From a virus, in IMG/VR virus record IMGVR_UViG_3300022719_000152, positions 74,639-138,638 of that record: a stretch of DNA of 64,000 nt; one strand, written 5' to 3'. Of this stretch, positions 2,071 through 38,484 are shown piece after piece. The notes under the pieces were generated by a model. The model made no database searches. It was not told where the DNA came from and saw only the letters and a program-made list of their open reading frames with translations. The translations under genes were made by a program, and so were the position numbers. Every line of letters starts with the position of its first letter. Within the stretch, counting starts at the first letter, position 1.

Positions 2071-2430
2071 TTACGACCCCCGAATGTCCTCGCCGGTTTG
2101 AATGAAGTGCACGAACGGGTCGGCACCACCGCCGGGTACGGCGTCGTCCGGATTGCCAAAGAAGTTGCCCTGGGGAGCCGCCATCTTGATGGCTTCCTCA
2201 GTTGCATCGAGGTTCTTGGCCTTCTTCAAACCCGCGATCTTCTGATTGAGATCCTTGTCTGAATCGAGGCCCTTCTCCTCCATCTGTTGTGCAATCTTGA
2301 CCACACGCTCGTGGTGGGTCCGATCATTGAGCTCCTGTTGAAGCTCAGCGTTCTTTTCCACCAACGTCCGAATGGTTGCCCCCGCAGTCTTGAGGAGGGC
2401 AGCCGCATCGCTTGAACTTACCTTCTGCAT
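2071..2430 (-). CDS. Small helical head/scaffold-associated protein (KxA motifs)
   Basis: Start revised to ATG 2430 (AAAGGA SD); KTA, KIA x2, KMA motifs. Confidence 0.65.
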   Translation of the reverse strand: MQKVSSSDAAALLKTAGATIRTLVEKNAELQQELNDRTHHERVVKIAQQMEEKGLDSDKDLNQKIAGLKKAKNLDATEEAIKMAAPQGNFFGNPDDAVPGGGADPFVHFIQTGEDIRGS

Positions 2431-2464
2431 TGCTGTCACTGTTCCTTTCGCCACTGGGGCAGGT

Positions 2465-4141
2465 TTAGGCCATGGGCATCGGAGGAGGAGAACCAGCGCC
2501 GGCCATGCCGCCGCCCATGGACATACCGCCCATGCCATCCTTCTCTTCAGGCCCAACTCCCTCCGCCGGAGCTTCTGGCGGGACACCTTCAGCGCCTTCG
2601 GCTTCCGCCAGCATGAGTTCAGCCGCAGCCAACTCTTCTGGGGTCACCCCAGCCGCAGCAGCGTCAATGGCTTCATCGGACGGAGCGCCTTCTGCTCCTG
2701 CTGCTCCCTCTGCTTCTAGGGCCGCCTCAGGCGGGACCTCATCGTCAGGAGGAGCAGCGAGCTCGCCACCATTCGGAGGCACGCTCCCACCCGCTTCATC
2801 CATGGCACTCTTTGCCTTGGCTAGTTTTTCGGCGCCTTCAGGGGATCCCTGGAGACGACGGAGGAGCTCCCTTGCCGCGGAGATCTTCACACCCGCACCG
2901 GAGGTGTTGTCCAACGACTGCTGGAGCACATTGTCATTGGCCGACGAGTGCGCCTTCTCAGAGAGAAGCTCGCCCATAGCCGACCGAGTATTTTGAGTCT
3001 TCGCCTGTTGCTTGGTCGCATTCATGGCCGCGTCATTCGAGTTGACCAGGTCACGACCAACGCCCTCACCAGAGGAGGGGGCGCTGCTGCGAGGCGTGTT
3101 GCTCCCGGCTTCCGCACCCTGGGACAGTTGCGACGGTTGCCCAGCCTCAGACTGGAGAACCGGCGTTGTGCCCGCAGAGATGGTCGCTGGGAACAGCGCG
3201 TCCTCAGCCTCTTTCTTGAGGCCGAGATGACGAGTGATGAGAGCCTTGGCTTCCTTCTCGGGGTACCCCGAGTCCATGGCTTCCTTGAGCAGCGCACTGG
3301 CTTGCTTCAGGGTCTCCCCGGAAACAGTCTCGGCACCAGGCTTGGCCTGGTCTTGTGCTGCCACAGTGGCTTTCGCCTTCGCTTTGAGCTCTGCTGGCAG
3401 CGCCTGCATCTCTGCTGCTCGCTTCTGGATCATGACCAGGCCGGTATTGGCGGAGATCTTACCCTCCTTCACCATGGTCTGGATTTGGTGAGCTTCCTTA
3501 GTGAGCTGCGCGGCAGTCTTCTGAGTGCCAGTGCTCTGATCCCCACCGGGTTGCTTCAGGAGAGTGTCCGGCTGCTCGGCCATCATCATCTCCTTGTTGC
3601 TCTCCAAGGCTCCGCTCGAAGAGTCACTGGGGAAGGTGTTCTCGGAAGGACCCACCGACTTGGGCGATTGGTGCGCCGGCATAGCGTCACCGCTCTGGCC
3701 AGCTTCCATGACCCCATCACCCTGAGCGTTGTTCGGCTCAGAGGGAACGGCATTCGAGCCGCCTACGCCAGTGCCCCCGCTCTCAGGAGTCACCGTTTTG
3801 GGAGACACAGAATCTGAGTTAGCCTCCTGAATCTGGTGCTGCTTGTCCTGAGGCTGATCACTGAGGTCGGCCGCCCTCTTCAACATGGCGCTGCTGATCG
3901 CCTCGAACTCCGCCAACTTCTCTTGGGGAGAGCGAGTGTCGTTGACCATGTGAATGTTCTTGGCCAGGTGGTCACAGGCGTCTGCGATCTTGAGAAACTC
4001 TTCGTTCGTGCCGGCGAGCTTCTGCTTTTTAGGGGGTGTTGAACCGGCGGGCGCAGCAGTCTTGTTCATTCCCGTGTCTTTCAACTGGGAATGAGAGTCT
4101 TCCAGCACCTGCGATACCATTTCGTAAACGGTGACAGTCAT
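2465..4141 (-). CDS. Putative scaffold/internal head protein, low-complexity, many KxA motifs
   Basis: 558 aa acidic/Ala-rich; KTAA, KLAG, KLAE, KRAA, KQAS, KEAE etc. Confidence 0.6.
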   Translation of the reverse strand: MTVTVYEMVSQVLEDSHSQLKDTGMNKTAAPAGSTPPKKQKLAGTNEEFLKIADACDHLAKNIHMVNDTRSPQEKLAEFEAISSAMLKRAADLSDQPQDKQHQIQEANSDSVSPKTVTPESGGTGVGGSNAVPSEPNNAQGDGVMEAGQSGDAMPAHQSPKSVGPSENTFPSDSSSGALESNKEMMMAEQPDTLLKQPGGDQSTGTQKTAAQLTKEAHQIQTMVKEGKISANTGLVMIQKRAAEMQALPAELKAKAKATVAAQDQAKPGAETVSGETLKQASALLKEAMDSGYPEKEAKALITRHLGLKKEAEDALFPATISAGTTPVLQSEAGQPSQLSQGAEAGSNTPRSSAPSSGEGVGRDLVNSNDAAMNATKQQAKTQNTRSAMGELLSEKAHSSANDNVLQQSLDNTSGAGVKISAARELLRRLQGSPEGAEKLAKAKSAMDEAGGSVPPNGGELAAPPDDEVPPEAALEAEGAAGAEGAPSDEAIDAAAAGVTPEELAAAELMLAEAEGAEGVPPEAPAEGVGPEEKDGMGGMSMGGGMAGAGSPPPMPMA

Positions 4142-4151: not shown

Positions 4152-4430
4152 TTAGGATCTCACGGGCGGCGGAGGTACTGCCTTTGACGTCTGAGTCGTC
4201 AAAGAGAACGCCGCCGACGGCGGTTTGTTATGGACCATTGTGTAATTCTGAGCCTTCGCCTCTTCCTTCAGGGGACTGGGAGGCGTGGTCCCGCGAGATG
4301 TTCCGCCCGCGATGTTCGTGCCTTTGTAGCTGGACTTAGTCTCGGCAACATTGGAAGCATCGCTTCCTGTGCCCAGGTTTGCCAGCTTGGCAAGTTCATC
4401 AACGAACGAAATCATCTCTACGGAACCCAT
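4152..4430 (-). CDS. Small internal virion protein with FVDELAKLA leader
   Basis: Start revised to ATG 4430 (GGAG upstream); MGSVEMISFVDELAKLAN. Confidence 0.6.
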   Translation of the reverse strand: MGSVEMISFVDELAKLANLGTGSDASNVAETKSSYKGTNIAGGTSRGTTPPSPLKEEAKAQNYTMVHNKPPSAAFSLTTQTSKAVPPPPVRS

Positions 4431-4440: not shown

Positions 4441-5154
4441 TTACTCCAGGTACCCGCTCTCCTTGAGCAACTCGATACCCCGGGCCTCAACTGCGGCAGC
4501 CAACTTGGCTTCCAGCTCCTGGTCAGACGCTTCGGGCGCCTGTTGCTGCGTCTCGATGCCAGCTTCTGCTAGCTTCGCCAGCGCCCACTCCGTCGCCATC
4601 TGATCGAGAGCAGACATTTGCTTCTCAGCCGCTGCGCCCTTCTCGATGCCAACATTGGCCCGGAGCTGAGAGATCAAGTCGTTCTGTGCAGACGCGGTCT
4701 TCTCAGCCGCAGCAGGAGCTCCCATGGGAGCGAGGTGGTCGGAGAACCCCTTGTCTTGAGCAGTCTTGCGAATGCTCCCGAGCTCTTGCCACATCGAGTG
4801 AGCCATCACACGGCCGGCGCGGTCTGCCGCTGCCATCTTCTCCGCTTCTGACTCACCCTCCTCCTTCTTCTCTTCTTTCTTCTCTTCCTTCTTCTCTTCC
4901 TTCTTCTCCTTGAGCTCAGGCGGCATCTCACCACCCATCGCTTCCTTCACGATGGCGGAGTCGTTGCCCCAGAAGTGGTGGGCCAACTTCACGACGTCAT
5001 CGCCGCTCAACTTGTCCACGTCCACTCCCTCTGCCTGCATTACGTTGCCCAGCATGTGAGCCTCGGCGAGTTTCTCAACGTCGCTTTGGCTGGAAGAGGT
5101 ACCAATCTCTTGATTGGTGTTGAAGATCTTAGTCAGGAAAGGATCCATACTCAT
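4441..5154 (-). CDS. Putative scaffold/internal head protein with EEKK repeats and KxA motifs
   Basis: 237 aa, AGGAG SD, EKLAE, VKLAH, VKEAM, EKMAA, EKTAS. Confidence 0.65.
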   Translation of the reverse strand: MSMDPFLTKIFNTNQEIGTSSSQSDVEKLAEAHMLGNVMQAEGVDVDKLSGDDVVKLAHHFWGNDSAIVKEAMGGEMPPELKEKKEEKKEEKKEEKKEEGESEAEKMAAADRAGRVMAHSMWQELGSIRKTAQDKGFSDHLAPMGAPAAAEKTASAQNDLISQLRANVGIEKGAAAEKQMSALDQMATEWALAKLAEAGIETQQQAPEASDQELEAKLAAAVEARGIELLKESGYLE

Positions 5155-5259: not shown

Positions 5260-8200
5260 CTAAGCAGGAAGAATGACTTCTGGTGGCCCCTTGCCCGTCC
5301 ACACTTTGTGGCCTGCGACAAGAAGGTCGTCGAACAATTCCTTGGACCGAGGATGCTTCATCAACTCCCTCAGTCCGGCGCCCACCCCCATGGTGGTTAG
5401 CCACGGATGCTCCGCGACGAAACTCCTGAGCGCTCCCATCTCTTCCCCTCGGCGTTGTTTGCCTTGGAGATGTGCTGAATACATCATTGTGATGGGAATG
5501 GCTCCGAGCACGACTGCTAGCGTCCGTGGGTCTACCGTTCCAGAAGAGGCGGTTTTTCCGAACGAGTCCTCCAGCGATGCGCCGTGAAGCGCTACGTGAA
5601 GTTTTGGATTGTTCGGCACTGCCCATGCTGCGTCTCCGGCGAGCTTCATTTGCTCTCGACGGTACCAAGTGTACGCCGCTGAGACCTTGGACAGAAGAGG
5701 TGAATTGACTTCCTTGCGGGGCGTCCGAGGGGCCGGCGCTGCAATGGTGATGCGCACAATTCGGCGCTTCAGAGGCGGGCCGAAGTAGGACTTGTCCCGC
5801 AAAAAGGGCAAGAGCTTGTCCAACAAGCCTTCGAGGCTGTGATCTAAGCTCAGAGGGCTGCACGGAGCACACTCCCCATCCACGGGCTTGAATACAGCAC
5901 TGTCATTGTCCAATGAATCTGCAAGGTCCGTCTTTCCCATCGCCGCCAGCGCGATCCGTTGGAATTCCTCTGGTTTCAACACCATCCCCATGGATGTAGG
6001 TGTCGCCAAAGCACCCTCGAGACCGCAATCTCCCATCTCGTTCAAGAGCTCGGGAGGTAGAGACGGCTCAGACTCAGACAGTGCAGGGGCCACTCGACCC
6101 ACTGCCTTATCTGGGCCCACCCGCTTTATTATGTCAGCCCACTTGAGGTGGGAAGCGATTTTATCGTCCGAGGCCATCTTCAGGAGATCTATGGCAGTAG
6201 GAACCCTCGGAGCGGAGGCTTGCTTGGCCTTCTCGGAGCTCCCCATACCTGACCCGGTCACCTCTGCGCGAATGTGGTCCTTACCGTCCTCGCCCTTGTT
6301 CTTCCATACCCTCTGCCGCCGGCGGGCATCTTGATTCTGGGCACTGGTGAAGAGGTCCTCCAACTGAAGGTCCACGTTGCCGGGCTGAGTGTCGATGAAC
6401 GCTACCTTCTCCTTGTGGAATTGCTTCTTCATGAGGCCCTTCTTGAACATGTCGAAGGTCATCGTGGTAACAGAGCGGAGGTAGTCTGCTTTGTCATAGT
6501 GTGCCAGGTAGGCGTTCGTAGCCTGCTCAATCGACTTGAATCCAACCATCACCTTGTCTTCGTCATGCTCTCCCTTGTTAGGGCCTCGAACGAAGTTCTG
6601 GTGGATGATGTAGACGTTCGGTGCATCGAAGTATGGCCCAACATACACATCGAGAGGGTCGCCGTCGGTACCCTCACTCTTCTGAAACTCCCCGTAGGGA
6701 ATATGCATCTTGGTCTGCCAACCTCTGCCTGTACGATATGTACCCGGGGCGTTCTCCACATTGATGGTGAGTCCACGGAACTTGATGGTGCCGACGAAAG
6801 GAAAATCGGGGCGGTTGGGCTGTGGTGGAGGGCCAATCTTGATCTTCTTGGCGTCCTTCCAGACCTTGGGCAAGTTCGCTTTGGCAGTGTAGAACCGCAT
6901 GACCTTACTTCGCTGGCTGGCACCTAGCTTAGCGAGGTTCGCATCCTCTGCAGGCCGCTTGCGCACATTGTCCGGCATCGACGACTGAACAGGAATCTTC
7001 CTCTCTGTCTCCTTGATGACCGTCTTCGGGTTCTCATCTGGGTTGGAGTGGACGTCGATGTTGTCTGTCTCGGTCATGCCCAACTTTGCTTGCTCACTCA
7101 CCCGCTCGCGTGGGTTGACCATGTAGTCTTCACTCAGCCTAGAGCTGGGCTCGTATTTCTCAGGATGTCGAAGGTCTACCACGTCGGGGCCAGCGGTCTT
7201 AGGCTCGTGGTCTGGAGCATACTCCTCATTGTCATCAGTACCCCGACCCATGCGGTCGTTGGTCTTCAGAGGCCCATGAACATCATCTCCTAGCCGGCGG
7301 TCAGTCTGTGGATCCTCTTTGCTCATGAGGAGCTTCCCATCGCCCGGGATGTCCAGATTTGAAAAGCTGACCTGGTCAGGTTTTTTGTCCGGCCGCTGAG
7401 ACAGAAACTCTTCCTGGTCTGAGGCTCTGTTGACGTCATCCCCTGCCAAGTAGGCCCCACCTACTCCCGCTCCAGTGTGGAGATTGACGTTGGCCATCTT
7501 GTTTTTGGATGTCTGTGATGGCTCAGTGAGAGCACCGATATTGACGTCCTCTCGTTCTGTCTCTCGCTGGAGCTGCTCCTTGTTAGGCTTGTACTTGGTG
7601 CCCCCCACATAGAGGAACTCTGGACCATCTCCATCGATGCTGAGCTTCAAGCCTCGGCTAGAACCCCAACCCCCCAACCTGTTCATGGTCTCCAAGAGAA
7701 CATCGATACGCTTGATGACGTCTGGGTGCCCCTCTACTTCGTAGGTTCGCTTTTCCCCACCCTGAGCCTTAGCGACCTTCTCCATGCTCGACGACTTCAC
7801 AACACCGTCATCATTGCTGGAGATCCCGTAGACCAGTTCGGCATCCATCACCGATTGAGGAACCACAACACCAGAGGCCAGCTTGCACATCATCTTGGCG
7901 GTCTTGTCGGCGCCGATGAAGACAAAGCTGATATCGAAGAACCGTGGGTGGTAGTTAACGACGCCTACTCGGCGGCCGTCTTCAAGAATGCGGCCCATGC
8001 CTAACTGAGTGATGCAACAACAGTAGTCTTTGGTGGTTCTAGATTTGTGACCGCAACAGGTGCAGACGTCATACGGAACTTTGCAGCCCATCGATACATC
8101 ACAGTATTCACCTGCATCAATCTTATCTACTACGTGCTGGGCTCCGTGCTGTGAAGCAAGCTCGCGGTCAAGGATAACGACAAGCTCCACTCTTCGCATC

Positions 8201-8613
8201 TTCGCATTCCAGACGGCGACAACGACTTCCCCGAATGCTCTGGAAGGATCTTTATTCTTGTGGTGGACGAAGGGGTGGGCATCAAGGAACGTCTTGTGTC
8301 CATAGGGCGGAACGGTCTTCCCCGTGAAGTCATCCATGGGGTAATGGCCATTGAACGTGAGGTGATTGTGGACGAGAGAGGATTCCGGGAAGACATCTCC
8401 GTTGACATTCTGCCCCCAATACTCTGAAGCGCCGAGAGCATTGACCAGAATGGGTATCTTGCCTTCAACTGGTTTGTACTCGCTGAGCCACTTTTGGACA
8501 TCGGGTAGCATGGTTCCTGCTACCTTCGTGATCTGGTCCCCGGGATGAAAGACTCGAGTGAGGGGCTCCCCTCCCTTCGAGACACCCTGGAATGTGGCTA
8601 GTTTAATAAGCAT
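5260..8613 (-). CDS. Prohead maturation protease polyprotein with internal inorganic pyrophosphatase (InPase-type) domain
   Basis: N-term NVNGDVF...FVHH...G...DVSMGC + CxxC...RFFDISFV-GAD protease-like domain; internal INVENAPGTYR..W..M...YG.....GTDGDPLDVYVGP...DEDKVMVGF PPase motif. Confidence 0.75.
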   Translation of the reverse strand: MLIKLATFQGVSKGGEPLTRVFHPGDQITKVAGTMLPDVQKWLSEYKPVEGKIPILVNALGASEYWGQNVNGDVFPESSLVHNHLTFNGHYPMDDFTGKTVPPYGHKTFLDAHPFVHHKNKDPSRAFGEVVVAVWNAKMRRVELVVILDRELASQHGAQHVVDKIDAGEYCDVSMGCKVPYDVCTCCGHKSRTTKDYCCCITQLGMGRILEDGRRVGVVNYHPRFFDISFVFIGADKTAKMMCKLASGVVVPQSVMDAELVYGISSNDDGVVKSSSMEKVAKAQGGEKRTYEVEGHPDVIKRIDVLLETMNRLGGWGSSRGLKLSIDGDGPEFLYVGGTKYKPNKEQLQRETEREDVNIGALTEPSQTSKNKMANVNLHTGAGVGGAYLAGDDVNRASDQEEFLSQRPDKKPDQVSFSNLDIPGDGKLLMSKEDPQTDRRLGDDVHGPLKTNDRMGRGTDDNEEYAPDHEPKTAGPDVVDLRHPEKYEPSSRLSEDYMVNPRERVSEQAKLGMTETDNIDVHSNPDENPKTVIKETERKIPVQSSMPDNVRKRPAEDANLAKLGASQRSKVMRFYTAKANLPKVWKDAKKIKIGPPPQPNRPDFPFVGTIKFRGLTINVENAPGTYRTGRGWQTKMHIPYGEFQKSEGTDGDPLDVYVGPYFDAPNVYIIHQNFVRGPNKGEHDEDKVMVGFKSIEQATNAYLAHYDKADYLRSVTTMTFDMFKKGLMKKQFHKEKVAFIDTQPGNVDLQLEDLFTSAQNQDARRRQRVWKNKGEDGKDHIRAEVTGSGMGSSEKAKQASAPRVPTAIDLLKMASDDKIASHLKWADIIKRVGPDKAVGRVAPALSESEPSLPPELLNEMGDCGLEGALATPTSMGMVLKPEEFQRIALAAMGKTDLADSLDNDSAVFKPVDGECAPCSPLSLDHSLEGLLDKLLPFLRDKSYFGPPLKRRIVRITIAAPAPRTPRKEVNSPLLSKVSAAYTWYRREQMKLAGDAAWAVPNNPKLHVALHGASLEDSFGKTASSGTVDPRTLAVVLGAIPITMMYSAHLQGKQRRGEEMGALRSFVAEHPWLTTMGVGAGLRELMKHPRSKELFDDLLVAGHKVWTGKGPPEVILPA

Positions 8614-8624: not shown

Positions 8625-9269
8625 CTATTCTTCGCCCATCTTCTTTTCCTTGATGGCAAGCTCTCGGTCCTTGAAGGCAAGCTCTCGGTCCTGAAGATGA
8701 GAAGATCGAATTTTCTGGCCGACGCCGATGAGGTCCAGGCCAGCTTGCGGTGAGAACGCCGGAGCAGTGTGTCGAGCTGCGTCAGACATTTCCTTGCGGG
8801 CTTTTACGAGCTGGTTGACCTGGTCAACATTCACTCGTGCCATATCGAGGGTGTTCTCCACAAACGCTCCCGCAACCATGGGATCCGCAGCGTATTCTGG
8901 GTTGAACCGATGGAGCGTACTGAAGGCTCTCTGCATTGCCTTCGAGTCCTTGCCTCTCAGATCAGGGTTAGCTCTGATCATCTCCTTGTAGTTGTCGGCT
9001 TTCTCTTCTTCTGCCTGGCTAGCTCGATAGCCACTGAGTGCAGTGTTTGCCAAAGCGGACCCACCTGTGAGGGCGACACCGGCGAGCAACGGTGGAATGG
9101 TCATCTCTGCAACCCGGCCCCAGTTGATAGCCAGTTTCTCTAGGCGAGCCTTTATCGAAGGATCAGCCTCTGCAGCCTTGAGCATCTCAGCGACGTTAGA
9201 GCCAATACGCTCCACCTGCTCCGCGGTGAGCTGACCCTCTGCAGCCAACTTCTCTACAAACTTGCTCAT
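8625..9269 (-). CDS. Internal virion protein with hydrophobic segment
   Basis: 214 aa; EKLAA, EKLAI followed by hydrophobic Gly/Ala helix. Confidence 0.6.
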   Translation of the reverse strand: MSKFVEKLAAEGQLTAEQVERIGSNVAEMLKAAEADPSIKARLEKLAINWGRVAEMTIPPLLAGVALTGGSALANTALSGYRASQAEEEKADNYKEMIRANPDLRGKDSKAMQRAFSTLHRFNPEYAADPMVAGAFVENTLDMARVNVDQVNQLVKARKEMSDAARHTAPAFSPQAGLDLIGVGQKIRSSHLQDRELAFKDRELAIKEKKMGEE

Positions 9270-9281: not shown

Positions 9282-9566
9282 TCAGAACGGATTGAACTTC
9301 GGTACGACTGGTTTTACCCCTCTATAGCCTCGACGGGAGAGTTCTAGTGCCTTCTGACTGCGAGAGATTCCCTCCATCATCGGACCTGCTGCAGCAGATG
9401 CGCCCCCTGCAGCAGCGAGAGAGGCCATGGGGAACTTCCGCACTCCCTTACCCACCATCCGAGTACCAAAGCCAACACCTTTGAGAAGCCCCTTCCCCAA
9501 AGCTGCACCAAGACCTGCCTCTTTGGTGAGCTCTCCTGCCATTCGACTAGAGTGTAATAGGCTCAC
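9282..9566 (-). CDS. Small Gly-rich amphipathic virion protein
   Basis: GELTKEA followed by GLGAALGKGLLKGVGFG; true start may be MAGEL. Confidence 0.55.
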   Translation of the reverse strand: MSLLHSSRMAGELTKEAGLGAALGKGLLKGVGFGTRMVGKGVRKFPMASLAAAGGASAAAGPMMEGISRSQKALELSRRGYRGVKPVVPKFNPF

Positions 9567-11187
9567 GACGAACCGCCTCCTGCAGGGTGTGGACTACCTC
9601 TCGATGATGGTTGGCAATTTGGTTACGGGCGTGTTCGAGCACGCGCTGACCCATGGCCAACTTGTGCATGGCATCGAACGTTAGAATCAGGGGGTGCTTC
9701 GGATTGATGACCCGGGCACTGGCCCCCTTCTCCATCTCGTACTGGATGACGTCGGACTGCAGCTTTCGGGTGTCGATGTCCTTGCCAGCCAAATAGGAGA
9801 CCATGTCCGACATGGCTGACTTGAGGAAGTTTTCGTCCTCAGTGATTGCAGACATAGACTGAGCCACGCCTCCCAGGTTGTAACCATTGGAGAGGAGTTG
9901 AAAGACATGGCCATGAAACTCTGCTTGAGCTTCCTTCAAGAGATCACGATTCTTGGCACAGGCGTGGTCGCTGTCCTCCGCCAGCTTGTCAAGCTGCCAC
10001 TTGGTACGCTGCAGATCTCCGAAGGGGTTGGCCTGTGGGTAGGGCGTCTCCTTGTTGGCGACAGCCTCTTTGATCTTTCCGAGACTGGTGCCCAACTTGA
10101 TGTTGGCAGCAACCTTCCTCATCTCTGGGCGAGCGGCCTGGACGTACTGCACCGCTTTGCTGACGAGCTCGGCGGCCATCTTCTGCTGGGGCATTATCTC
10201 CCCGCCACCGCCTCCACCAGGCATCCCACCCTGGATGGCAGCAGCCACGTCCGGAGGAGGCTGAGCTCCACCGGCGGCTTGAGCCTCACCTTGTCCCTGG
10301 GCAGCCGCTGGATCCATTGCGGGGTCAGGCTGAGGGTTCATCATCTGCTCAGTCTTCTGACGGATGTTGGCGAGCTCTTGCTTCTTCTTCTCCAGTTCCA
10401 CCTGACGGGACATCTCCATCATCTCTTGGTGATGCTGCTCGGCAGGGTCCATTTGTGACCCGGTCATCGCTGGGCCGGCACCGATGGAGCCCTGGGGCAC
10501 CATACCACCCATAGACACCTTCTCGTGAGTGGCCGCCTCGTCGTAGGTCTCTTGACTGCCCTCGAGCTTGGGGTTGTTGTCGAGGCCCTCAGTTCCTGGC
10601 TCGACGGTACCGTCCTCTCGGGCTGCTTGGAGGATGCGGTCTACAGCAGAGCCTTCCTTCACCTGCTCAACCTGACCTCCTTCCAAGATACGAAACACCG
10701 AAGACATGTCTGGGCCCGCGGAGAGGTCCACACCCATCACCAGCTTCTCGGCGCTCTTCTCCAACTCGGGGGTGTAAGGCTCGAAGCCGAACATTCGCAT
10801 CAGCTCCACATCCCCACCCGTCTCGGCACCGGCCGTCTTCACGGGGCCACAAGCGTAGTCATCAGAGATGATCTGCATGGAAGGGCGGGCTCCGTTATCG
10901 AGCTCGTGGAGGACCACACCAGGGTCTGCGATTTCAAATTCAATATTCTTGTCGCCAGCCTGCTTCTCGAACATGGACGAGAAGGTCTCCTGGTTGGCAA
11001 ATTCTACCACTCTCTTCACCTGATGAGCTGAGATGGTAGGATACTCCTTGGCGATCTTGACGATGGCATCGTTGAGGCTAGACCCTCTACAGAGGTACTC
11101 GTTGGACGCTCGCTTCCCCAGGGACTGCAAATCGGTTGCTGATAGGGGGGCGTGAACAGTACGGGAGAGCCCCAATGTGTCTGACAT
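9547..11187 (-). CDS. Head-module protein with many KxA motifs
   Basis: 546 aa, GAGG SD, first gene of head operon; KIA, KQA, KTA, KSA, KMA, KVA, KEA, KLA. Confidence 0.65.
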   Translation of the reverse strand: MSDTLGLSRTVHAPLSATDLQSLGKRASNEYLCRGSSLNDAIVKIAKEYPTISAHQVKRVVEFANQETFSSMFEKQAGDKNIEFEIADPGVVLHELDNGARPSMQIISDDYACGPVKTAGAETGGDVELMRMFGFEPYTPELEKSAEKLVMGVDLSAGPDMSSVFRILEGGQVEQVKEGSAVDRILQAAREDGTVEPGTEGLDNNPKLEGSQETYDEAATHEKVSMGGMVPQGSIGAGPAMTGSQMDPAEQHHQEMMEMSRQVELEKKKQELANIRQKTEQMMNPQPDPAMDPAAAQGQGEAQAAGGAQPPPDVAAAIQGGMPGGGGGGEIMPQQKMAAELVSKAVQYVQAARPEMRKVAANIKLGTSLGKIKEAVANKETPYPQANPFGDLQRTKWQLDKLAEDSDHACAKNRDLLKEAQAEFHGHVFQLLSNGYNLGGVAQSMSAITEDENFLKSAMSDMVSYLAGKDIDTRKLQSDVIQYEMEKGASARVINPKHPLILTFDAMHKLAMGQRVLEHARNQIANHHREVVHTLQEAVRREPITL

Positions 11188-16544: not shown

Positions 16545-16560
16545 TTTTCACCTCTGCGCT

Positions 16561-16569
16561 GGTATAAGA
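16561..16569 (+). promoter_or_regulatory. GGTATAAGA candidate phage promoter
   Basis: Identical 9-mer at 17540 and 32312; ATG follows at 16575 with no SD. Confidence 0.55.
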
Positions 16570-16574
16570 GTCTC

Positions 16575-17529: not shown

Positions 17530-17539
17530 AAGAAACCTC

Positions 17540-17548
17540 GGTATAAGA
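17540..17548 (+). promoter_or_regulatory. GGTATAAGA candidate phage promoter
   Basis: Intergenic, upstream of 17595 gene with GGAGG SD. Confidence 0.55.
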
Positions 17549-27800: not shown

Positions 27801-30800
27801 TTCTTCTTGGGCGCGCCTTCCTTCAGCAGAGACAATGGGTCCTTGTTGATGTCAGACAGGTCGATGACCTCATTGAGGTCGATCTCTTTGTTCTTCGTGG
27901 CCTTCACTGCGTCTAAGAGATTGTCGAATTTCTTCCCTTTGTCTTTACCCATTTCGGTAAGCTTGTAGAGACCGAGCATAGCCTCCTGCTCTGGCTTGAA
28001 CATGAGTGAGCCGGTAGAGGGGCTAAAAAGGTTATGCGACGGGACCATCTTGGAGGCTTCGCGCACCGCCGAGGGGCTTACTGGGACGAAGGCAGCCATC
28101 TTGTCACCATCGAAGTCAGCGTTGTACCCAGACGTAGCCAATGGATGGATCTTGATGGCCTTCCCGTCAGTTAGGCGCGGCTTGAACGCTTGGACTCCAA
28201 ACTTGTGCAGAACTGGGTCACGTTTCAGCAGTAGAGGCCTCTCATTCACAACCTTCTCTAGGTGCTTATCGGAAGCGATAGTGCTTTCCTTCACTTCCTT
28301 CTGGGCCTGTAGGGGTCGGTACCCTGAACGCACCATGCTCTGTACGACGAAAGGCTTGTAGAGTTCACGAGCTGCTTTATGAGGTATGCCCACCTCGTCG
28401 AGGGAGAGCGACGGCTCTGGAACAATAGTGCTGCGCATGGAGAGGTCTTGCCGACGACCAATTATCTTGCTCTGGAAGAATCCTTCCTTGGGGCTGGCAC
28501 CTGCGATGAGACCGGCGATTCCCTTGAGCTGCTTACCGTGGGAGGTGACTCCAGACATGGTCAGCGACTTGAGTCCGTCGTACATCGTGGACTCCAGCTT
28601 CGTCTTCTCCTCCGGAGGAAGGGCAGGATCGAACGTTTTGATTTGGTCGTTGGTCGCGCCCACCAACTGATAGATGCGGTTGAGGTCGTCGAGGTTCAAC
28701 TGGCCATCATCACGCACCATCACCGGCCGCATGGTCGGAGGCAGCACCGGCAAGTGTCGCATGGTGTACGCCTCGGTGGGCTTCATGCCGGCACGCTTGA
28801 GGGCGTTCAGGTACTTGAGTTTCTTGTTGGCGTCGTTCAGCTTGTTCGTTCGTAGCTTAGGTATCTCGGCCTGGATATTCTTCATCTCTCCATCGATATC
28901 GATTTGCTTCAGCTTGGAGATGATGGCTTCCGGGCCGGTCTTACCGTCCAACTCCTCTTTGCCATTGATGATTGCAGAGAACTGCTTCTTCTTCAGACCC
29001 AACAGAGATTGGACAGGAGTCTCAAACACGGGGTTTGGCATTCGAGATTCGAGCTTGATGTGCGACCACTTGCCGCCGAGATGACCCTCGGGCCACTTGG
29101 TCCCCGTAACATCCGGGTCAAAGATACCGCCCTTCTCTGGCTTGAGCTTACTACCTTGCAGAGCTCGAGAGGGCCGCTTGAGCTCGCCGTTGGACATGGC
29201 CAAGGTCTTCTTGTCCGTAAGCGGGGCCAAGAAGAGGTCGTTACCGTCCTTCTGAACGTCTAGACCCATGCCCTTGAGGTACCCCTCAAATTTCTTCCAC
29301 ACGAATGGGATCTTTGGGGTGGGTATTGAGGAGCCGGACTGAAGCTGCACCCAGAACTCATCGTTTTTATCCGATTTATAGCTTTGCATCTCACGAACAT
29401 TCTCTCGAGCATTGTGAGCAAGCATAGCGTAGAGACCCATAGCGTCCATCGTCTGAGCACCGTGAGGGCCTCCCTTCCTAGGGGCCATGTTGGAATCGTA
29501 GGCGTGACGAGAACGAACAGAGAGGCCCTTCTCAGCAGTGTGATGAAGTTTGTAGATATACTGATCTCCAGTCAGTACCTTACCCAAAGACTTATTGGTG
29601 TTCGGGTCAAACAGCTCCTCTGTGTCACTGATACCTGCCTTCTTCAACTCGTCTTGAAGATCACGGGTGTAGTCCTTCTTAGAGGGGTCGAAGTTGTTGA
29701 CGACGTAGGGCTTACCCTTCTTATCGGAAATCTTGGATGCTGCTGTCTCAAGAACCTGCCCCAGATTGATACGAGTGGGGACTCCAGTTGGGTTGAGTAG
29801 CACCTGGACTGCATTTCCATCCTTGTCCTTAGGCATCTCATGGTCAGGGAGAATGTTGGTGATGATACCTTTGTTGCCGTGCCGGCCAACAATTTTGTCT
29901 CCTATATCCGCAGGAGCATCGGCCTTGATGTACACGGTGGTCTTCTTGCCATGCTTGACGACGCGGGTGACGGTACCGGGAGCGTCCTTCTCCCACCGAG
30001 TATCCCGGGCGCGCATGGGATTGAGACGCTTCTTTGAGAACAGGCCCAGCATCTGTTGCTCTGGAGTGACGAGCTCCTTGCGCAGAGCTCCTATGATGAC
30101 GTCGCCAGGCTCTACACGCTGGCCCTCCATGATTACTGCGTTGTCATCAAGCTTATCTGCTTGCTCTCTGGTGACCTGGCCCGCTGTCTGGGCGAGGAAC
30201 TTCTTCTTGTTGAGGACGGTATTCTTGTCAGCTTGCACGTTGTTGCGAAACATATGCTCAGACGTGAGCTTCTTCGCTGCCGAATCGGAGATGACGATGC
30301 CATCCTCGAAGTTGTACCCCTGATAAGGCATGTAGGCGACCCGGAGGTTGGTGCCCAGGGCCAGCGTACCATCCTTGGTGAAGTTGGTGTCCGCAACCGG
30401 CTGGCCGGCTTTGACCTGGTCACCTTTTTTGACGATAGGAGTTGAATTGATGACACTCTTGTCATCATTCAGTGGGAAGTCGTCGTAGAGTTGTACCTCA
30501 TGTCGTTTCCCATCGTCTCCGCGGATGACCACACCATCTTTCTTGATCTTCTCTACCTTGCCAGCGACAGGAGACATGTGTGAAACGAATGAGCCGACGA
30601 GCTGCTCCCAAGTGGCTGGGGTATCAGAGCGGACCTGGACCTTAGGCTGCTCTCTGTCCTTGAGAGCGACGGCTTGCTCAATCTGCTTGGCGGCCACCAT
30701 GGTTCGATTGCCCTGGTTGTTCTGCAAGAAGGGGATCATGTTGGCGCTGAGGTCAAACATGCCCTTGGAGGACTTCAGAACGTAGTCCACGTCAGAGGGC

Positions 30801-32209
30801 TTGGACAGTATGGTCGTACCCTCCTTATCCGAGATCTTCACCAGTCGGCCCACCGGCTTCATCTCACCATTCTTCATCTCATACTGATCTGGGTACGCGA
30901 CATTGGACGTGAGCGCAGTGGCCGGATCAATCCACTCGGTCTTCTTGGTCTTGGTGTTGTAAGCACGGACCTTGAGATCTTTCCCCCTCTTCTCAGCACC
31001 CAAGGAGAGCTGCAGCGTCGTACCAATCTTAGCCGACTCTGGGGTCTGGATGGGATCAAGGAACCCCATGTGGCTTGGGTTGATGAGCTTGGCCGCGTCC
31101 GTCACCTGGTGAATTGAGCCGATACCTCCCTCGCCCAACACAGTCGTTCGACGGTTCCCTGATATGTAGCTCATGGGGTTCATCTGGTCTGGCTGGCTGG
31201 AGAGGTTGGAGGAAGAGAAGAAGCTACGTATGGGCTTGCCAAATTGCTCTGGGTTGATGATCTCCTTGACCTTGGTCTTCTTGTCCACGTTGTTGGAGAT
31301 TTTGCGGCGCACGTTCCACTTGTCGTTGCGCTCGAAACGATCCACCAGCAAGTCCTCGGCAGACATCAGATCCTTGAACCGGAGAGAGTCCCTATCGTCA
31401 GTCTTTTCTTCCTGTCGAGATACACGTAGGATCTTGTGCGAGCCGTCGAGGAGAGCGCTCCCGGTGACCTTGTCATAAGGAGTTCCCAATGTGACTTTTG
31501 TAGAATCTGGACGCAGCACAGTGCGCTCCATCTCCTCCTTGATCTTCTCCCGGGCCTCTTCCATTGACTCTGGGTTCTCACCCGTCATCGACTTGTAGAA
31601 CTTCTTCAACGCTACGTCGTGCTTCTCCTTCTGGTTGGCAGAGAGAATCTCTTTGCCCCAGCGCCGCTCTATCGTGTCGTCGTCAACCCCCATCTCTTTG
31701 AGAATCGGGTACAGGGCAATGTTTGCATTCTTACCCTGATGCTTCATCGTCATCTTCTTGGTCTTGGGGTCGAAGTTCATTTCGAACCCAAGACCCTTGG
31801 CAAGGTTCCACTGAGATGCAATGTCGCCGTTGTCCTTCACTCGGGTGTAGACGCCAGACTTCAACCGGAACTGGTTGTTCACCTGGTACTCGTTGCCGTT
31901 GACAATGTAGGTGTATCGATTGGTGACCTTGGGGAGTTGGGCGACAGTAACGGCTTGGCGGTCTTTCACCTTGCCTGTTTTGTTGTCCACGAGCTCTACT
32001 TCGGCTCGGACAGGCACTGACCAGGTCTGGTCTTTAAGCTTGGCCTGCTTTTGGCTCCGGATATCGTCGATATCCTTGTTGTCATCCACCCAGACCTTGT
32101 TCACCTGAAGGGTGTTCTTCTTACCCTCTATAGGAAACTGGTCTTTGACGACCATGGATACTCGATCTTTGAGTGTGCTGAATGCGTCTTGTGGTTCCCA
32201 GTGTGCCAT
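24815..32209 (-). CDS. Single-polypeptide DNA-directed RNA polymerase (fused beta + beta') with intein
   Basis: beta motifs TPES, GYNFEDGI, GDKIVGRHGNKG, KLHH; beta' motifs LPVLPPTMRP, KRDPVLH, YNADFDGD, GEPATQLSMNAFH/TGG. Confidence 0.95.
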   Translation of the reverse strand: MAHWEPQDAFSTLKDRVSMVVKDQFPIEGKKNTLQVNKVWVDDNKDIDDIRSQKQAKLKDQTWSVPVRAEVELVDNKTGKVKDRQAVTVAQLPKVTNRYTYIVNGNEYQVNNQFRLKSGVYTRVKDNGDIASQWNLAKGLGFEMNFDPKTKKMTMKHQGKNANIALYPILKEMGVDDDTIERRWGKEILSANQKEKHDVALKKFYKSMTGENPESMEEAREKIKEEMERTVLRPDSTKVTLGTPYDKVTGSALLDGSHKILRVSRQEEKTDDRDSLRFKDLMSAEDLLVDRFERNDKWNVRRKISNNVDKKTKVKEIINPEQFGKPIRSFFSSSNLSSQPDQMNPMSYISGNRRTTVLGEGGIGSIHQVTDAAKLINPSHMGFLDPIQTPESAKIGTTLQLSLGAEKRGKDLKVRAYNTKTKKTEWIDPATALTSNVAYPDQYEMKNGEMKPVGRLVKISDKEGTTILSKPSDVDYVLKSSKGMFDLSANMIPFLQNNQGNRTMVAAKQIEQAVALKDREQPKVQVRSDTPATWEQLVGSFVSHMSPVAGKVEKIKKDGVVIRGDDGKRHEVQLYDDFPLNDDKSVINSTPIVKKGDQVKAGQPVADTNFTKDGTLALGTNLRVAYMPYQGYNFEDGIVISDSAAKKLTSEHMFRNNVQADKNTVLNKKKFLAQTAGQVTREQADKLDDNAVIMEGQRVEPGDVIIGALRKELVTPEQQMLGLFSKKRLNPMRARDTRWEKDAPGTVTRVVKHGKKTTVYIKADAPADIGDKIVGRHGNKGIITNILPDHEMPKDKDGNAVQVLLNPTGVPTRINLGQVLETAASKISDKKGKPYVVNNFDPSKKDYTRDLQDELKKAGISDTEELFDPNTNKSLGKVLTGDQYIYKLHHTAEKGLSVRSRHAYDSNMAPRKGGPHGAQTMDAMGLYAMLAHNARENVREMQSYKSDKNDEFWVQLQSGSSIPTPKIPFVWKKFEGYLKGMGLDVQKDGNDLFLAPLTDKKTLAMSNGELKRPSRALQGSKLKPEKGGIFDPDVTGTKWPEGHLGGKWSHIKLESRMPNPVFETPVQSLLGLKKKQFSAIINGKEELDGKTGPEAIISKLKQIDIDGEMKNIQAEIPKLRTNKLNDANKKLKYLNALKRAGMKPTEAYTMRHLPVLPPTMRPVMVRDDGQLNLDDLNRIYQLVGATNDQIKTFDPALPPEEKTKLESTMYDGLKSLTMSGVTSHGKQLKGIAGLIAGASPKEGFFQSKIIGRRQDLSMRSTIVPEPSLSLDEVGIPHKAARELYKPFVVQSMVRSGYRPLQAQKEVKESTIASDKHLEKVVNERPLLLKRDPVLHKFGVQAFKPRLTDGKAIKIHPLATSGYNADFDGDKMAAFVPVSPSAVREASKMVPSHNLFSPSTGSLMFKPEQEAMLGLYKLTEMGKDKGKKFDNLLDAVKATKNKEIDLNEVIDLSDINKDPLSLLKEGAPKKNKTTMGRLMVYHSLPEKVRDERILYDPAFNLNKKSLNDLLTRIAKDSTGDFGWAADRLKDIGNEHSTGLSISLKDFESDSRFRDSLMAAAAKEETKIRNSRASSDKKAEKIVNLYSKVSATLDKEGKKRMDKKTDNRMYDWIKSGARGKWDNFKQMTLAPVLVADSSGKPVPVPINKSYSEGLDIGSYWASMHGARMGTIGRVEGTWRPGLMSKQLIQTTMNQMVVDEDCGTSKGIILPVDNRDILDRYTSRAIKLGTKGGKEKGTIPAGTLITPDVVNRLRNNKVSEVRVRSPLKCEHGDGMCGKCYGLNENGEIHNPGTNVGVMAAHALGEPATQLSMNAFHCNHSDSLVFVRRLEGEPYAVTMEDFFESMQVDVEVEGDEEIKDLSGANIETLSKEGWVPVTHVRRHAPSRPMRMLSGGGLVTICQDNHPVAVWQNAVQCESCGYHRLKKNGTRAVCPSCKKAQRFQERKPVGQVGYLPPTELDPKRFFLHKNLKPVISHECTNDIAEKYIGEDPWVVGMFLAEGCVTFKRSHARMQEKKPYALDFAQNDGPIKDKLVLALEASGHGPRVYTKRVIVNSLALGAKFHSLFGRYAHKKSLPPRFIQFDLDWLRRCLAGIIDGDGTVERHKDGPDTIGIDTTSFELAQQVAFVAIRLGIDSSIVATTIGEITRKQGFKVRLRMTPLACALLEDSIKVTQIEKKSLTSGPPSIEKHVLLTLNREILYDEPYVYDLTTESGTLYVGGLLSHNTGGVVGAKGTDAINVFTRLEQLLNVPKKLPGSATLAQAEGKIEQVKKDEAGGWSVYIHGQRHYVPGSRKLKVKKGDLVRRGDAISSGPKNPMEMLPLTNINSVQRYLTDEIQGTYESVAPIRRRNTETFVRAMTNLSEVLDPGDHEDVIRGDRMPTSEINKFNRNLPKGKKSVVYRPMLKGVNQLPLELQTDWIARLQSQKLKGTLIDAAAEGWRSALHSTNPVPGMAYGKEFGKGTEEAPWLY
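25550..26770 (-). mobile_element. Intein in RNAP trigger loop (407 aa, LAGLIDADG, Zn-ribbon-like insert)
   Basis: AFH|CNHSDSLV...MFLAEG...LAGIIDGDG...VYDLTT...SHN|TGG; visibly AT-richer than flanks. Confidence 0.9.
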
Positions 32210-35480: not shown

Positions 35481-36074
35481 TTACCCGTAGTATCTGCGGA
35501 TTCGATTGATTTGACTGGTAGCTTCAGTGGGTGATGGGGCATTGAGGGCCTGGTCTACCGTACCACCACTGCGTAGTCGATCAATGACCCGACCAAGCCT
35601 ACCACCAGCAACTTCGCCAGCAGTAAACATCCCTACCGCAGGAACAAACCCCAAACCTCCACCCAATACACCGCCTGCGGCGCCTCCAATGTTGGCCAAC
35701 CACCGCTCTGCAGCACCACCTTCACCAGTAGGGGAGGCAGGCTGTGATTTACCCATTGTCAGAGCTGCGGCTGGAATTCCAAGGGTCAAACTCTTCTCTC
35801 CGATGGGTAGGTACTTGGTCACCTTGCCTTTGCCCGTCCAGCCTCCCATCTCCTTCCAACCTTTTCTCATGCCTTCTACTGGATGCATAACACGCTGAGT
35901 TGCGTCACTGAGCCCCTGATGCTGCCCTTTGAAGAACTCCCCTACTGAGCGGGCCTTGGAGGCCATTCCTTTGCCCAGCGGAGACTTGCCGAGCCGTGTC
36001 AAGAGCCTGCTAATGCTGGCTTGTTTCTCGAGCTCATCGACGAAGGCTTCGTACTCGCTCAGTGGGTGACCCAT
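35481..36074 (-). CDS. Gly-rich internal virion/membrane-active protein with AFVDELEKQA leader
   Basis: 197 aa; amphipathic and GxxxG hydrophobic segments. Confidence 0.6.
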   Translation of the reverse strand: MGHPLSEYEAFVDELEKQASISRLLTRLGKSPLGKGMASKARSVGEFFKGQHQGLSDATQRVMHPVEGMRKGWKEMGGWTGKGKVTKYLPIGEKSLTLGIPAAALTMGKSQPASPTGEGGAAERWLANIGGAAGGVLGGGLGFVPAVGMFTAGEVAGGRLGRVIDRLRSGGTVDQALNAPSPTEATSQINRIRRYYG

Positions 36075-36934: not shown

Positions 36935-36936
36935 TC

Positions 36937-38484
36937 CTAGCTTCGAGGATCGTAGCTGCTGTTCAGCGGGTCCGCGCCTCCTTCTGGGGCACGAGAAGCT
37001 GCGAATTCAGACTCACCGAACGAGGAAGCATCGTTTGCCATGCGGGCAAACAGTTTCTTCTGTGGGTCCGGCATCGACATGAACACACTCTCTGGGTCCT
37101 TCTGGAATTCTTCCACGAAGTCATCGGAGTATTGCTGCTTGACTGATTCCAGGTTGTTACGGGCGAGGTTGTGGAGCTCATAGTCGGTTACCCTTTCCGC
37201 TCCGGAGGTCCACAGTACCTTAGAGGCAACCTTCACCCCAAAGGTGGACTCCCAGGGGTTAGGAATGACGCGGTCCCACCCCTGATTGAGGCCGTGCTCG
37301 AGGTCGAATCTCCGGAGCACCTCAGCGTAGGTATCGGGCCTCAGCTCAGCCCGTTTCTCGAAAAGCTCATCCAAGAACTGGCGACCCTCACTATCGGGGG
37401 CCATAGCGCACTTGCGCATCTCACAGGCAGACTTGAGTTGCCCATCATCGCCGTAGCTGGCAGAGCCGAGCTCTCGAATGGTCTCGTCTATAGGGTAACT
37501 GATGATAGCCGCCTTTCGCGCTAGCTTGGTGGCAAACTGCCGGCGAATCTCAGGCTCCATGCTGGACTTGTGGTCCATGAAGTAGTCGTTGGCCTTCTTG
37601 ACCATGTCCCACGAGTGAATGGGGTAATGACGGCTACCATTAGAGAGAATGACCGCGTAATCATCGTCGCTCTTGGGGGCAGCCTGCTTGACGATGGGTC
37701 GAGGTCTCTGGCCGGTGATATCTACCACCGGTTCTACCCTCTGACCGGCAGTTTTGGTGAGCTGCTCAGGAGGTAGCAGACCATGCTGGAGGCAAGCGTT
37801 CACGAGGTTGGCAGCAGCAGTCTTCTGGGCACTCTCCGGTAGCTTGCTGCCGTGCTTCATGAAGTAGATCACTGACATCGCCGTCGTGCCCTTCGAGTCG
37901 CAGGCAAACTTGCGCATGAGATGGCCCTGATCGAGTGCCACGAGAGCAAAGGCTTCGTCGGGCAGCTTCTCAGACTCTTTGATGGAGGCAGTCTTGATGG
38001 TCTCCGGGAGCTCCTCTGGGGTGGAGAAGAAATCTTTCAGAGTTGCGCCCTCATCGTCGTAGAAATCCAAGGTGACGCCTGCGTATTTGTAGCCCATGCT
38101 GGAACTCTCCTTCTTCTTGCTTGTCAGGCCGCCTATTGAGCCGCCCATACCTACTCCCGCCAGCGGCAGCAAGGCTTTTGCCGCGGGACCTCGGCCATGG
38201 GCCCAAGCGCTCCCAGTTACTCCTCCTAGAATACCCCCAAGACCACCCCGGAGGGCAGCACTACTTGCATCGTCTGGGTTGGCGAGAGCTCCTACAGCAG
38301 CTCCTCCAGCGCCGGCAAGAGAAGCATCTCGAATAGCCTTGGCTGTAGTAGCAGCAGCTTCATTTTTGATCTGTTTGGCAGCTTCTCGGCCCACCCCGCG
38401 AGCTCCCTTTCGAACTTGCCCCTTCCAGTAGGAGGGCTTCATCTTCTTGAACCACTCCCAAGCGGCGGCTTTCTTGTCAGACAT
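36937..38484 (-). CDS. Virion protein with Gly-rich N-terminal module and KxA motifs; possible internal start at 38097
   Basis: Start revised to ATG 38484 (GGAGG SD); KTAS, KTAA, KTAG, KQAA, KVAS. Confidence 0.65.
   Translation of the reverse strand: MSDKKAAAWEWFKKMKPSYWKGQVRKGARGVGREAAKQIKNEAAATTAKAIRDASLAGAGGAAVGALANPDDASSAALRGGLGGILGGVTGSAWAHGRGPAAKALLPLAGVGMGGSIGGLTSKKKESSSMGYKYAGVTLDFYDDEGATLKDFFSTPEELPETIKTASIKESEKLPDEAFALVALDQGHLMRKFACDSKGTTAMSVIYFMKHGSKLPESAQKTAAANLVNACLQHGLLPPEQLTKTAGQRVEPVVDITGQRPRPIVKQAAPKSDDDYAVILSNGSRHYPIHSWDMVKKANDYFMDHKSSMEPEIRRQFATKLARKAAIISYPIDETIRELGSASYGDDGQLKSACEMRKCAMAPDSEGRQFLDELFEKRAELRPDTYAEVLRRFDLEHGLNQGWDRVIPNPWESTFGVKVASKVLWTSGAERVTDYELHNLARNNLESVKQQYSDDFVEEFQKDPESVFMSMPDPQKKLFARMANDASSFGESEFAASRAPEGGADPLNSSYDPRS

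Follow-up and report, generated by a model that had tools for sequence, protein, structure and literature searches.

The question raised by this locus is whether a virus cuts its own head proteins at a short Lys-x-Ala (K-x-A) motif, and which enzyme would do so. The window analyzed here is a stretch of 64,000 nucleotides, the final 64 kb of the 138,638-base IMG/VR record IMGVR_UViG_3300022719_000152 (a single contig). An earlier note on this DNA had claimed that nearly every minus-strand head gene, 12 of which it named, is rich in K-x-A, and that the protease encoded by open reading frame (ORF) 5260..8613 cuts after the motif, turning these proteins into polyproteins that release many peptides and enzymes. 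Our analysis makes it quite probable that the pattern hydrophobic-x-Lys-x-Ala-small is the recognition site of the ORF 5260 protease, with a cut predicted, as the prohead matures, C-terminal to the Ala (in some cases Gly or Ser). ORFs are designated below by their lower coordinate in the window, and motif counts are given as observed versus expected K-x-A.

The 12 named ORFs, pooled (4,857 residues), contained 94 K-x-A versus the 40.9 expected from composition (Poisson P 9e-13), and K-x-A ranked first among 2,000 combinations of residue pair and gap, with a log P of -12 compared with -3.9 for the runner-up. A-x-K, KA, and K-x-x-A stayed at 0.78 to 0.96 of expectation in the same ORFs. No x-x-E pair came near K-x-A among the 2,000, so that the Glu-ending motif of T4- or phiKZ-type proteases was not found. 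The control set of 20 plus-strand genes showed a mild excess (54 versus 41.4; ratio, 1.3; P 0.03) and 15 other minus-strand genes showed none (40 versus 40.6). Individually, seven of the 12 ORFs were enriched, with p values of 0.0003 to 0.003 in whole-protein and 30-residue local shuffles: 2071 (6 versus 1.4), 2465 (14 versus 5.8), 4441 (9 versus 3.6), 5260 (15 versus 6.4), 9547 (13 versus 3.7), 21659 (13 versus 3.5), and 36937 (16 versus 5.2). The remaining five were not (4152, 1 versus 0.7; 8625, 3 versus 2.5; 9282, 1 versus 1.2; 18620, 2 versus 5.7; 35481, 1 versus 1.2), and every one of these has a K-x-A site within its first 20 residues. The capsid protein (2 versus 1.3), putative portal (2 versus 2.6), terminase (4 versus 3.7), and RNA polymerase (9 versus 15.3) were at or below background. 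The overrepresentation of K-x-A in seven head-region proteins is therefore real, but it is not module-wide, and the claim for nearly every head gene has to be narrowed accordingly.

The five-residue pattern proposed for the motif occurred 23 times versus 2.2 in the 12 ORFs and 4 times versus 1.8 on the plus strand, but the pattern had been fitted to these same ORFs. Since the 12 ORFs had been chosen after being seen, independent tests in relatives were used. A matrix trained on relatives only, applied to the late minus-strand cluster (37 ORFs), found 49 sites versus 5.1 in shuffled sequence, compared with 1 versus 1.6 in 18 plus-strand ORFs and 8 versus 4.8 in the 126 other ORFs of the genome.

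The relatives themselves came from 90 IMG/VR loci, with near-copies dropped by shared 4-mers. Five families were enriched 2.1- to 4.2-fold, namely, those of 2071 (158 versus 38), 2465 (538 versus 260), 4441 (226 versus 105), the protease ORF (503 versus 222), and 9547 (412 versus 117), and nearly all of their members lay above expectation (33 of 33, 47 of 49, 23 of 24, 41 of 42, and 35 of 35, respectively). The 21659 family (171 versus 53; 14 sequences) and the 36937 family (28 versus 10; 5 sequences) behaved likewise, compared with 171 versus 199 for the polymerase and 14 versus 22 for the baseplate-like protein 23673. No enrichment was seen in the families of the terminase (53 versus 56), the capsid protein (16 versus 14), and 8625 (59 versus 70). 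R-x-A, E-x-A, A-x-K, and K-x-G were not comparably enriched in the relatives. The K-x-G variants described earlier do exist at some conserved positions; with counts of only 0.3 to 1.1 of expectation in 11 families, K-x-G was rejected as a general variant.

The logo built from 1,837 sites of the relatives reads (L/M/F)-(E/V/T)-K-(L/V/T/I)-A-(S/A/E)-A, with Pro depleted at x and Trp, Ile, Leu, and Val depleted after the Ala, a depletion pattern that looks like that of a protease site. Among cultured phages, the counts were 50 versus 21.5 for eight module proteins of Salmonella phage Arash (92 versus 99 in its other 56 plus-strand proteins), 57 versus 21.8 for the module of Vibrio phage D69, and 16 versus 6.2 for gp19 to gp21 of phage G, all three sets having been picked with the per-gene counts in view. 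In Arash and D69, BLAST matched only the protease and, weakly, D69's counterpart of 9547, and the other counterparts were assigned by gene order. Homologues in actinophages carry a looser basic-x-Ala signal, as in Catera gp94 (K-x-A, 18 versus 8.3) and in phage E3 (R-x-A, 40 versus 24.6). Comparison over the protease family suggests that P3 may drift between Lys, Arg, and His.

The enzyme most likely to read such a site is encoded within the module. The N-terminal part of ORF 5260 is predicted to adopt the prohead-protease fold of the T4 gp21/herpesvirus type. When the AlphaFold model of this core was compared with 48,161 solved chains, the best match was T4 gp21 (5jbl; Z 9.6; root mean square deviation, 3.0; 132 residues aligned), the only chain with a Z of 8 or more, followed by the varicella-zoster virus (VZV) protease (Z 7.0) and then by unrelated MCE domains (Z 6.7). 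Foldseek also ranked gp21 first in the PDB, at an E value of 0.1, and matches in BFVD named prohead protease had E values of 5e-6 and weaker. The same search returned uncharacterized proteins with this fold in Pseudomonas phage PaBG (E 2e-9) and Ralstonia phage phiRSL1 (E 2e-8). Curated profiles gave no Pfam or NCBIfam match and a weak one to phrog_18299 (head maturation protease; E 0.006), and a profile of the protease alignment found nothing under an E value of 0.1 among PDB sequences. By sequence, the core matched phage G gp19 (pairwise E 3e-24), and its homologues comprise Arash gp222, cluster C mycobacteriophage proteins, and E3 gp77, which is annotated as a prohead protease. The ORF precedes the capsid gene by six genes, both being on one strand, and the protease gene is likewise upstream in Arash, D69, phage G, Catera, and E3. 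Among 42 homologues H117 and H118 were invariant and S174 and D227 at least 90% conserved, so that the order His, Ser, acidic residue is present; from this conservation, His118-Ser174-Asp227 is the putative catalytic triad. In several related protease ORFs, inteins interrupt the catalytic His or Ser motifs.

The distribution of sites along this protein was in agreement with self-release. In the 37 intein-free rows of the 42, K-x-A counts were 52 versus 10.1 before the core, 27 versus 39.4 within it, and 70 versus 21.9 after it. In the five intein-bearing proteases, the inteins had 6 versus 6.2 and the remainder 63 versus 27, a second intein of one protein having stayed in the remainder. Phage G gp19 also has K-x-A on either side of its core (8 versus 2.4), with K-V-A-S at the place aligned with K244-L-A246. 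Protease and InPase (inorganic pyrophosphatase-like) domains were the only ones identified in ORF 5260, the rest belonging to no Pfam or NCBIfam family. Among 14 proteins, a K-x-A lies no more than 16 residues after the InPase domain in 13 and no more than 23 before it in 11, against a background of one K-x-A per 43 to 90 residues. The proposal that this protease cuts after K-x-A is thus supported by a predicted prohead-protease fold, by sites bracketing the domain, and by the position of a known cut in phage G.

That cut is the sole experimental anchor for the position of cleavage. The capsid protein of phage G has 282 residues, and its mature form, determined by N-terminal sequencing, has 255 and a mass of 28.2 kDa (Hua et al. 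2017, PMC5646251, Table 1). A length of 255 corresponds to a cut between A27 and Q28, with a computed mass of 28.17 kDa, and Ala27 aligned gap-free with Ala25 of K23-V-A25 in the window by both MAFFT and BLASTP. Because the mature N terminus of phage G aligns directly after the Ala of K-V-A, the cut probably falls between Ala and the next residue. In 36 of 37 distinct related capsid proteins (the other was partial) the anchor pattern was present, with Lys in all 36 and, at the Ala place, Ala in 32, Ser in 3, and Asn in 1; in cluster C and E3 capsid proteins this stretch reads R-L-G|Q. This alignment favors a small P1 and suggests Lys as the P3 preference of this clade. The eight supplements of the phage G multi-omics paper (PMC12484599) contained no peptide from the N terminus of the capsid protein, and a search of the phage G tail paper (PMC8570332) gave no mention of cleavage.

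A further predicted site lies in the RNA polymerase, which is not among the 12 named ORFs. The fused polymerase of the window has a 21-residue linker at the point where the gene is split in Arash and D69: Arash gp206 and its D69 counterpart stop near residue 1452 of the window polymerase, and gp216 starts near residue 1471. Among 119 homologues (the best 120 of 1,962 minus the window's own, counted from the alignment), 67 had a linker of 15 to 36 residues, and K-x-[A/G/S] was present in all 67 (shuffled mean, 30; maximum, 42 in 500), with K-x-A in 42 (shuffled, 15.6). The linker logo was (L/M)-x-K-(L/T)-(A/G/S)-A, although identity in the long-linker enzymes was only 25% in the linker versus 46 to 50% in the flanks. 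The other 52 fused polymerases have a turn of 5 to 9 residues in its place, none with K-x-A and 15 with K-x-G (beta-turn), and showed no clear alternative site matching the logo. From the clustering of linker-bearing enzymes on a tree, the linker may have had one or two origins and been kept under selection. In Arash, virion mass spectrometry (MS) recorded 3,516 and 1,210 spectra for the two polymerase chains, and its authors allow for enzymes as carry-over (PMC10585845). Its list of virion proteins also includes gp218, gp220 to gp226, and gp242. We infer that the window polymerase is packaged in the head and cut. It is about an even chance that the head-packed single chain is cut once, in the linker and by an Ala-specific protease, into the two chains of Arash and D69, with a protease site in place of the gene break, and that a helical F-x-x-E-L-x-K-x-A tag serves as a portable label for loading head cargo and releasing it. 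The large polymerase chains of Arash (L002:45094) and D69 (L003:6489) both have K-x-A-S in their first six residues.

As for the other candidate substrates, the proteins of 2071, 2465, 4441, and 9547 are acidic and poor in aromatic residues, with one site every 20 to 45 residues, and by analogy they would fit core or scaffold proteins destined for digestion, like T4 gp22, gp67, and gp68. The likely start of the 2071 protein is Met54 of the long ORF, a purine-rich stretch preceding that Met. The release of many enzymes, as the earlier note had it, was overstated: the motif-rich proteins are mostly acidic and low in aromatics, belong to no known family (Pfam and NCBIfam), and look like material for digestion, and flanking or internal sites occur in only three identified enzyme modules, namely, the protease, the InPase domain, and the RNA polymerase. 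Sites had also been placed at domain boundaries, which is correct for some. The 21659 model has five low-confidence segments, of which four contain a conserved K-x-A/G site and one stops four residues short of such a site; K18, K167-x-G, K470, and K581 lie in such segments between folded domains, and several other sites lie within confidently folded parts. ESM Atlas had no usable match for 21659 or 9547, a Foldseek search of the PDB had none for the 21659 model, and for 36937 a locus search found a single weak match.

Short leaders make up another class. The pattern F-x-x-E-[LIVM]-x-K-x-[AGS] is matched strictly at four places in the genome, each near an N terminus and two of them within the window. 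In 786 related ORFs it was found 29 times versus 1.5 expected, 16 of these within the first 13 residues, several of the 29 being orthologues and some being internal or near C termini; the version with Arg had one match. The leader thus shares a feature of T4-type capsid targeting, a short N-terminal peptide common to unrelated proteins and ending at a predicted protease site. Upstream of the window, on the minus strand of the record between 62535 and 72630, genes 62535, 69236, 70449, and 72037 carry the leader or multiple sites; they are small or Gly-rich and stand among tail and neck genes. The 18620 protein had no relative among the fetched loci. By eye, its C-terminal half has His and Cys motifs like those of a permuted papain-fold enzyme, with no Pfam or NCBIfam family match. 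At its place, relatives encode an ATP-dependent ligase with a LigD phosphoesterase (L004:1920-4076) or an SNF2 helicase (L013:25-1776), both with the helical tag in their C-terminal part. The 18620 position looks like a variable cargo slot.

These leaders also bear on a different explanation, namely, that the motif serves for docking or targeting, as a short helix binding the core or the protease, and is mostly left uncut or cut elsewhere. The strong excess of the extended helical form is in accordance with this, as are its occurrence near the C termini of the ligase-like protein and others as well as at N termini, the high MS coverage values of Arash, and the existence of a targeting sequence in T4 (PMC9958956). 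However, many sites have no helix and lie in low-complexity stretches, sites bracket the protease core, phage G is cut on the aligned Ala, and targeting and cutting are compatible, as they are in T4. We consider it very unlikely that docking or targeting alone accounts for the motif.

It is very unlikely, in our view, that the same protease reads the motif and cuts after the Lys (K|x-A). The Lys is the least variable residue, being kept in 36 of 36 capsid proteins, 42 of 42 propeptide sites, and 67 of 67 linkers, and HK97 gp4 cuts after Lys on its capsid protein. Nevertheless, the mature length of 255 places the phage G cut after Ala27 and not two residues earlier, which would give 257 residues and 28.35 kDa, and large hydrophobic residues are depleted after the Ala and preferred after the Lys. 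Enzymes of the T4 family, moreover, read P3-x-P1 (A-X-E in SPN3US; PMC10052503). Finally, that K-x-A is a by-product of amphipathic, Ala- and Lys-rich scaffold helices with no role as a signal is highly improbable, since despite the helix-like spacing of the logo (L at -2, hydrophobic at +1), the mild excess in plus-strand genes and in two coiled-coil-like proteins, and the sites in predicted helices, R-x-A, E-x-A, K-x-x-A, and A-x-K were not comparably enriched, the signal survived local shuffles, and the motif is kept in the poorly conserved polymerase insertion and absent from inteins.

Several observations weigh against cleavage after K-x-A by the ORF 5260 protease. The phage G site is A-L-A|Q, with Ala and no Lys at P3, and the enzyme that cuts there is unproven; phage G also encodes ClpP (PMC12484599), and the PDB listing for the chain of its gp27 (6wkk) runs over residues 1 to 280. 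The capsid K-E-A of Arash and D69 is one residue out of register, and conservation in the capsid protein is also high at other lysines (0.75). Outside the module, two small coiled-coil-like proteins, 57741 (4 versus 1.3) and 58756 (5 versus 2.4), have a 2- to 3-fold excess, and many K-x-A sites belong to predicted helices or strands. Internal K-x-A also occurs in related InPase domains (25 versus 12 expected), mostly as K-x-A-Y in one helix, a misfit to the logo. For the polymerase, the 52 of 119 enzymes that lack the linker mean that a cut there is not generally needed, and the linker-bearing enzymes cluster on the tree (four changes; FastTree, 151 columns), so that the 67 are not independent. 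In Arash MS (PMC10585845), coverage of 96 to 100% for the motif-rich gp220 and gp223 would, taken at face value, speak against the removal of these proteins, but some of the values, for instance 100% from two unique peptides, look unreliable. For its part, K237-T-A, Arg in phage G, was rejected as a cut site of the protease and is probably structural.

From the enrichment and conservation of the motif, the predicted protease fold, and the placement of the sites, the following course of maturation can be proposed. Core proteins, the protease polyprotein, and tagged cargo would coassemble into a prohead, in which the protease would release itself at K30-V-A32 and K244-L-A246. The acidic, motif-rich 2071, 2465, 4441, and 9547 proteins, and partly that of 36937, would then be digested, clearing the head. 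By cuts at single sites, the capsid protein would lose about 25 residues and small internal proteins their short helical leaders. Cuts at the joints of a few multidomain chains (21659, the InPase module, and the fused RNA polymerase) would leave pieces that are kept, in the case of the polymerase the two chains for which Arash and D69 have separate genes. The coordinates of the features concerned are collected in Table 1.

Table 1. Head-module genes, domains, and predicted cleavage sites in the window
Feature	Position	Strand	Remark
HK97-fold major capsid gene	350..1474	-	phrog_2522; NF042927 under its cut-off
Predicted single capsid maturation site K23-V-A25	1400-1408	-	Ala25 aligned to phage G gp27 Ala27
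Small acidic motif-rich protein, scaffold-like	2071..2427	-	Upstream of decoration and capsid genes
Acidic low-complexity motif-rich protein, predicted core/scaffold	2465..4141	-	Net charge -32
Small protein with N-terminal F-x-x-E-L-x-K-x-A leader	4152..4430	-	Site kept in 8/13 relatives
Acidic motif-rich protein, predicted core/scaffold	4441..5154	-	
Protease-InPase-C-terminal domain (no family) polyprotein	5260..8613	-	15 K-x-A
InPase domain	6439..6792	-	PF18823 E 1.5e-29; K586-D-A before, K736-V-A after
K244-L-A246, predicted release site past protease domain	7876..7884	-	K-x-A 29/37, K-x-G 4/37 intein-free rows
Prohead-protease core (predicted), residues 37-234	7912..8505	-	Model pLDDT (predicted local distance difference test) about 90
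Putative Asp227	7933-7935	-	
Putative Ser174	8092-8094	-	
Putative His118	8260-8262	-	
K30-V-A32, predicted propeptide end	8518..8526	-	Lys 42/42 rows, K-x-A 39/42
Protein with N-terminal site	8625..9269	-	No overall enrichment
Small basic protein, one N-terminal K-E-A-G site	9282..9542	-	Kept in 7/9 relatives
Acidic motif-rich protein, predicted core protein	9547..11187	-	Family 35/35 above expectation
Terminase large subunit with inteins	11517-15671	-	
Basic protein, degenerate leader ending K-G-A-S	18620..20149	-	Not enriched
Multidomain protein	21659..23665	-	Conserved sites at predicted domain joints (K18, K167-x-G, K470, K581)
Single-chain beta/beta-prime RNA polymerase with intein	24815..32209	-	Pfam Rpb1/Rpb2 domains; LAGLIDADG precomputed for same protein
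Inserted linker with L-L-K-E-G|A	27800..27862	-	K1463-G1465 at 27815-27823; where Arash and D69 split the gene
Portal homologue (putative)	33411-35477	-	32% to Arash gp204
Basic Gly-rich protein with N-terminal F-x-x-E-L-x-K-x-A leader	35481..36074	-	
Motif-rich protein	36937..38484	-	

The replication genes are on the plus strand from 39 kb on, and no tRNAs were found in the 64 kb. The phage genome is probably incomplete, because related contigs reach 170 to 200 kb. The capsid protein had 280 matches in IMG/VR. The nearest cultured relatives are Arash (OQ632216) and Vibrio phages D69, D148, and D181, with the same gene order and with 27 to 28% identity in the capsid protein and 35 to 38% in the protease. 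Like the multisubunit-RNAP Caudovirales (mReC), the window phage has both beta and beta-prime RNA polymerase; PF07068 as the best capsid match is another mReC feature (PMC7481178), and the capsid protein of the window had no Pfam match at an E value of 0.01. The terminase contains two LAGLIDADG-type inteins, at about residues 101 to 524 and 815 to 1170. An insert in the middle of the structural cluster (15672-18623) carries genes for a flavodoxin-like flavin mononucleotide (FMN) reductase on the minus strand and for RNase HII and an Ntn-hydrolase/C45-like protein on the plus strand. ORF 1543 likely encodes a head decoration protein; at the corresponding place in Arash, an unannotated open frame (19400-19980) just upstream of gp226 is probably the Gp225.1 of the MS table. 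A 444-codon plus-strand frame antisense to the capsid gene (5-1339), very low in Lys, is probably a shadow ORF.

Compared with known systems, the best reading is a T4-like head maturation with a different predicted specificity. In T4, the core proteins gp22, gp67, and gp68 are digested, the capsid proteins gp23 and gp24 are trimmed, internal proteins IPI to IPIII and Alt lose a leader, and the protease cleaves itself (PMC9958956); the same three substrate classes and self-cleavage are predicted for the window phage. The predicted core fold resembles that of gp21 (Z 9.6), but gp21 cuts after Glu (PMC5694885), whereas Ala, Gly, or Ser at P1 and Lys at P3 are predicted here, and the window protease contains a Cys-rich insertion and continues into a long fused tail that includes an InPase domain. 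phiKZ gp175 and SPN3US gp245 likewise have a P3-x-P1 motif, a small P1', many head substrates, and a virion multisubunit RNA polymerase (PMC10052503, PMC5694885). They differ in that the motif is A-X-E, about 80% of SPN3US head proteins are uncut, and the polymerase consists of five gene products instead of one chain with an internal site. Polyvalent proteins also combine an InPase domain with other domains in a virion protein for which processing has been proposed, but their assemblin-like peptidase is C-terminal, not N-terminal as here, and the passages concerned state no cleavage motif (PMC5512222; Iyer et al. 2017).

Homologues by sequence of the protease and capsid protein occur in phage G (gp19 and gp27), cluster C mycobacteriophages, and Rhodococcus phage E3 (gp77), with a phage G capsid site that lacks Lys and R-x-A in place of K-x-A in E3; the papers searched on these phages state no cleavage motif. 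Arash, D69, D148, and D181 share gene order and motif and differ in having the RNA polymerase as two genes split at the linker position. The Arash paper leaves gp222 as a "structural protein," with no occurrence of "proteas" or "cleav." In the literature searched, with most subscription papers outside its scope, neither a K-x-A head-protease motif nor a cleaved fused polymerase was described for this group.

The large-phage head proteases whose specificity we found described (T4, phiKZ, 201phi2-1, and SPN3US) all cut after Glu. A rule of Ala at P1 and Lys at P3, if true, would be the maturation code of a widespread group, reaching phage G at least in part. It would predict the virion cargo among unannotated proteins, along with the positions of the cuts, and it can be tested in the cultured phages Arash, D69, and phage G. 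The polymerase linker offers a natural comparison between a split gene and a fused-and-cut chain. The rule would also bring phage protease specificity close to that of herpesvirus assemblin, whose fold matches that predicted for the window protease (VZV 1vzv, Z 7.0; human cytomegalovirus 8j3s, 5.0; Kaposi's sarcoma-associated herpesvirus 1fl1, 4.6) and which is likewise fused to a C-terminal extension. Assemblin cleaves after Ala, with a hydrophobic P3 and a His-His-Ser triad, whereas the window protease would use Lys at P3 and a putative His-Ser-Asp triad.

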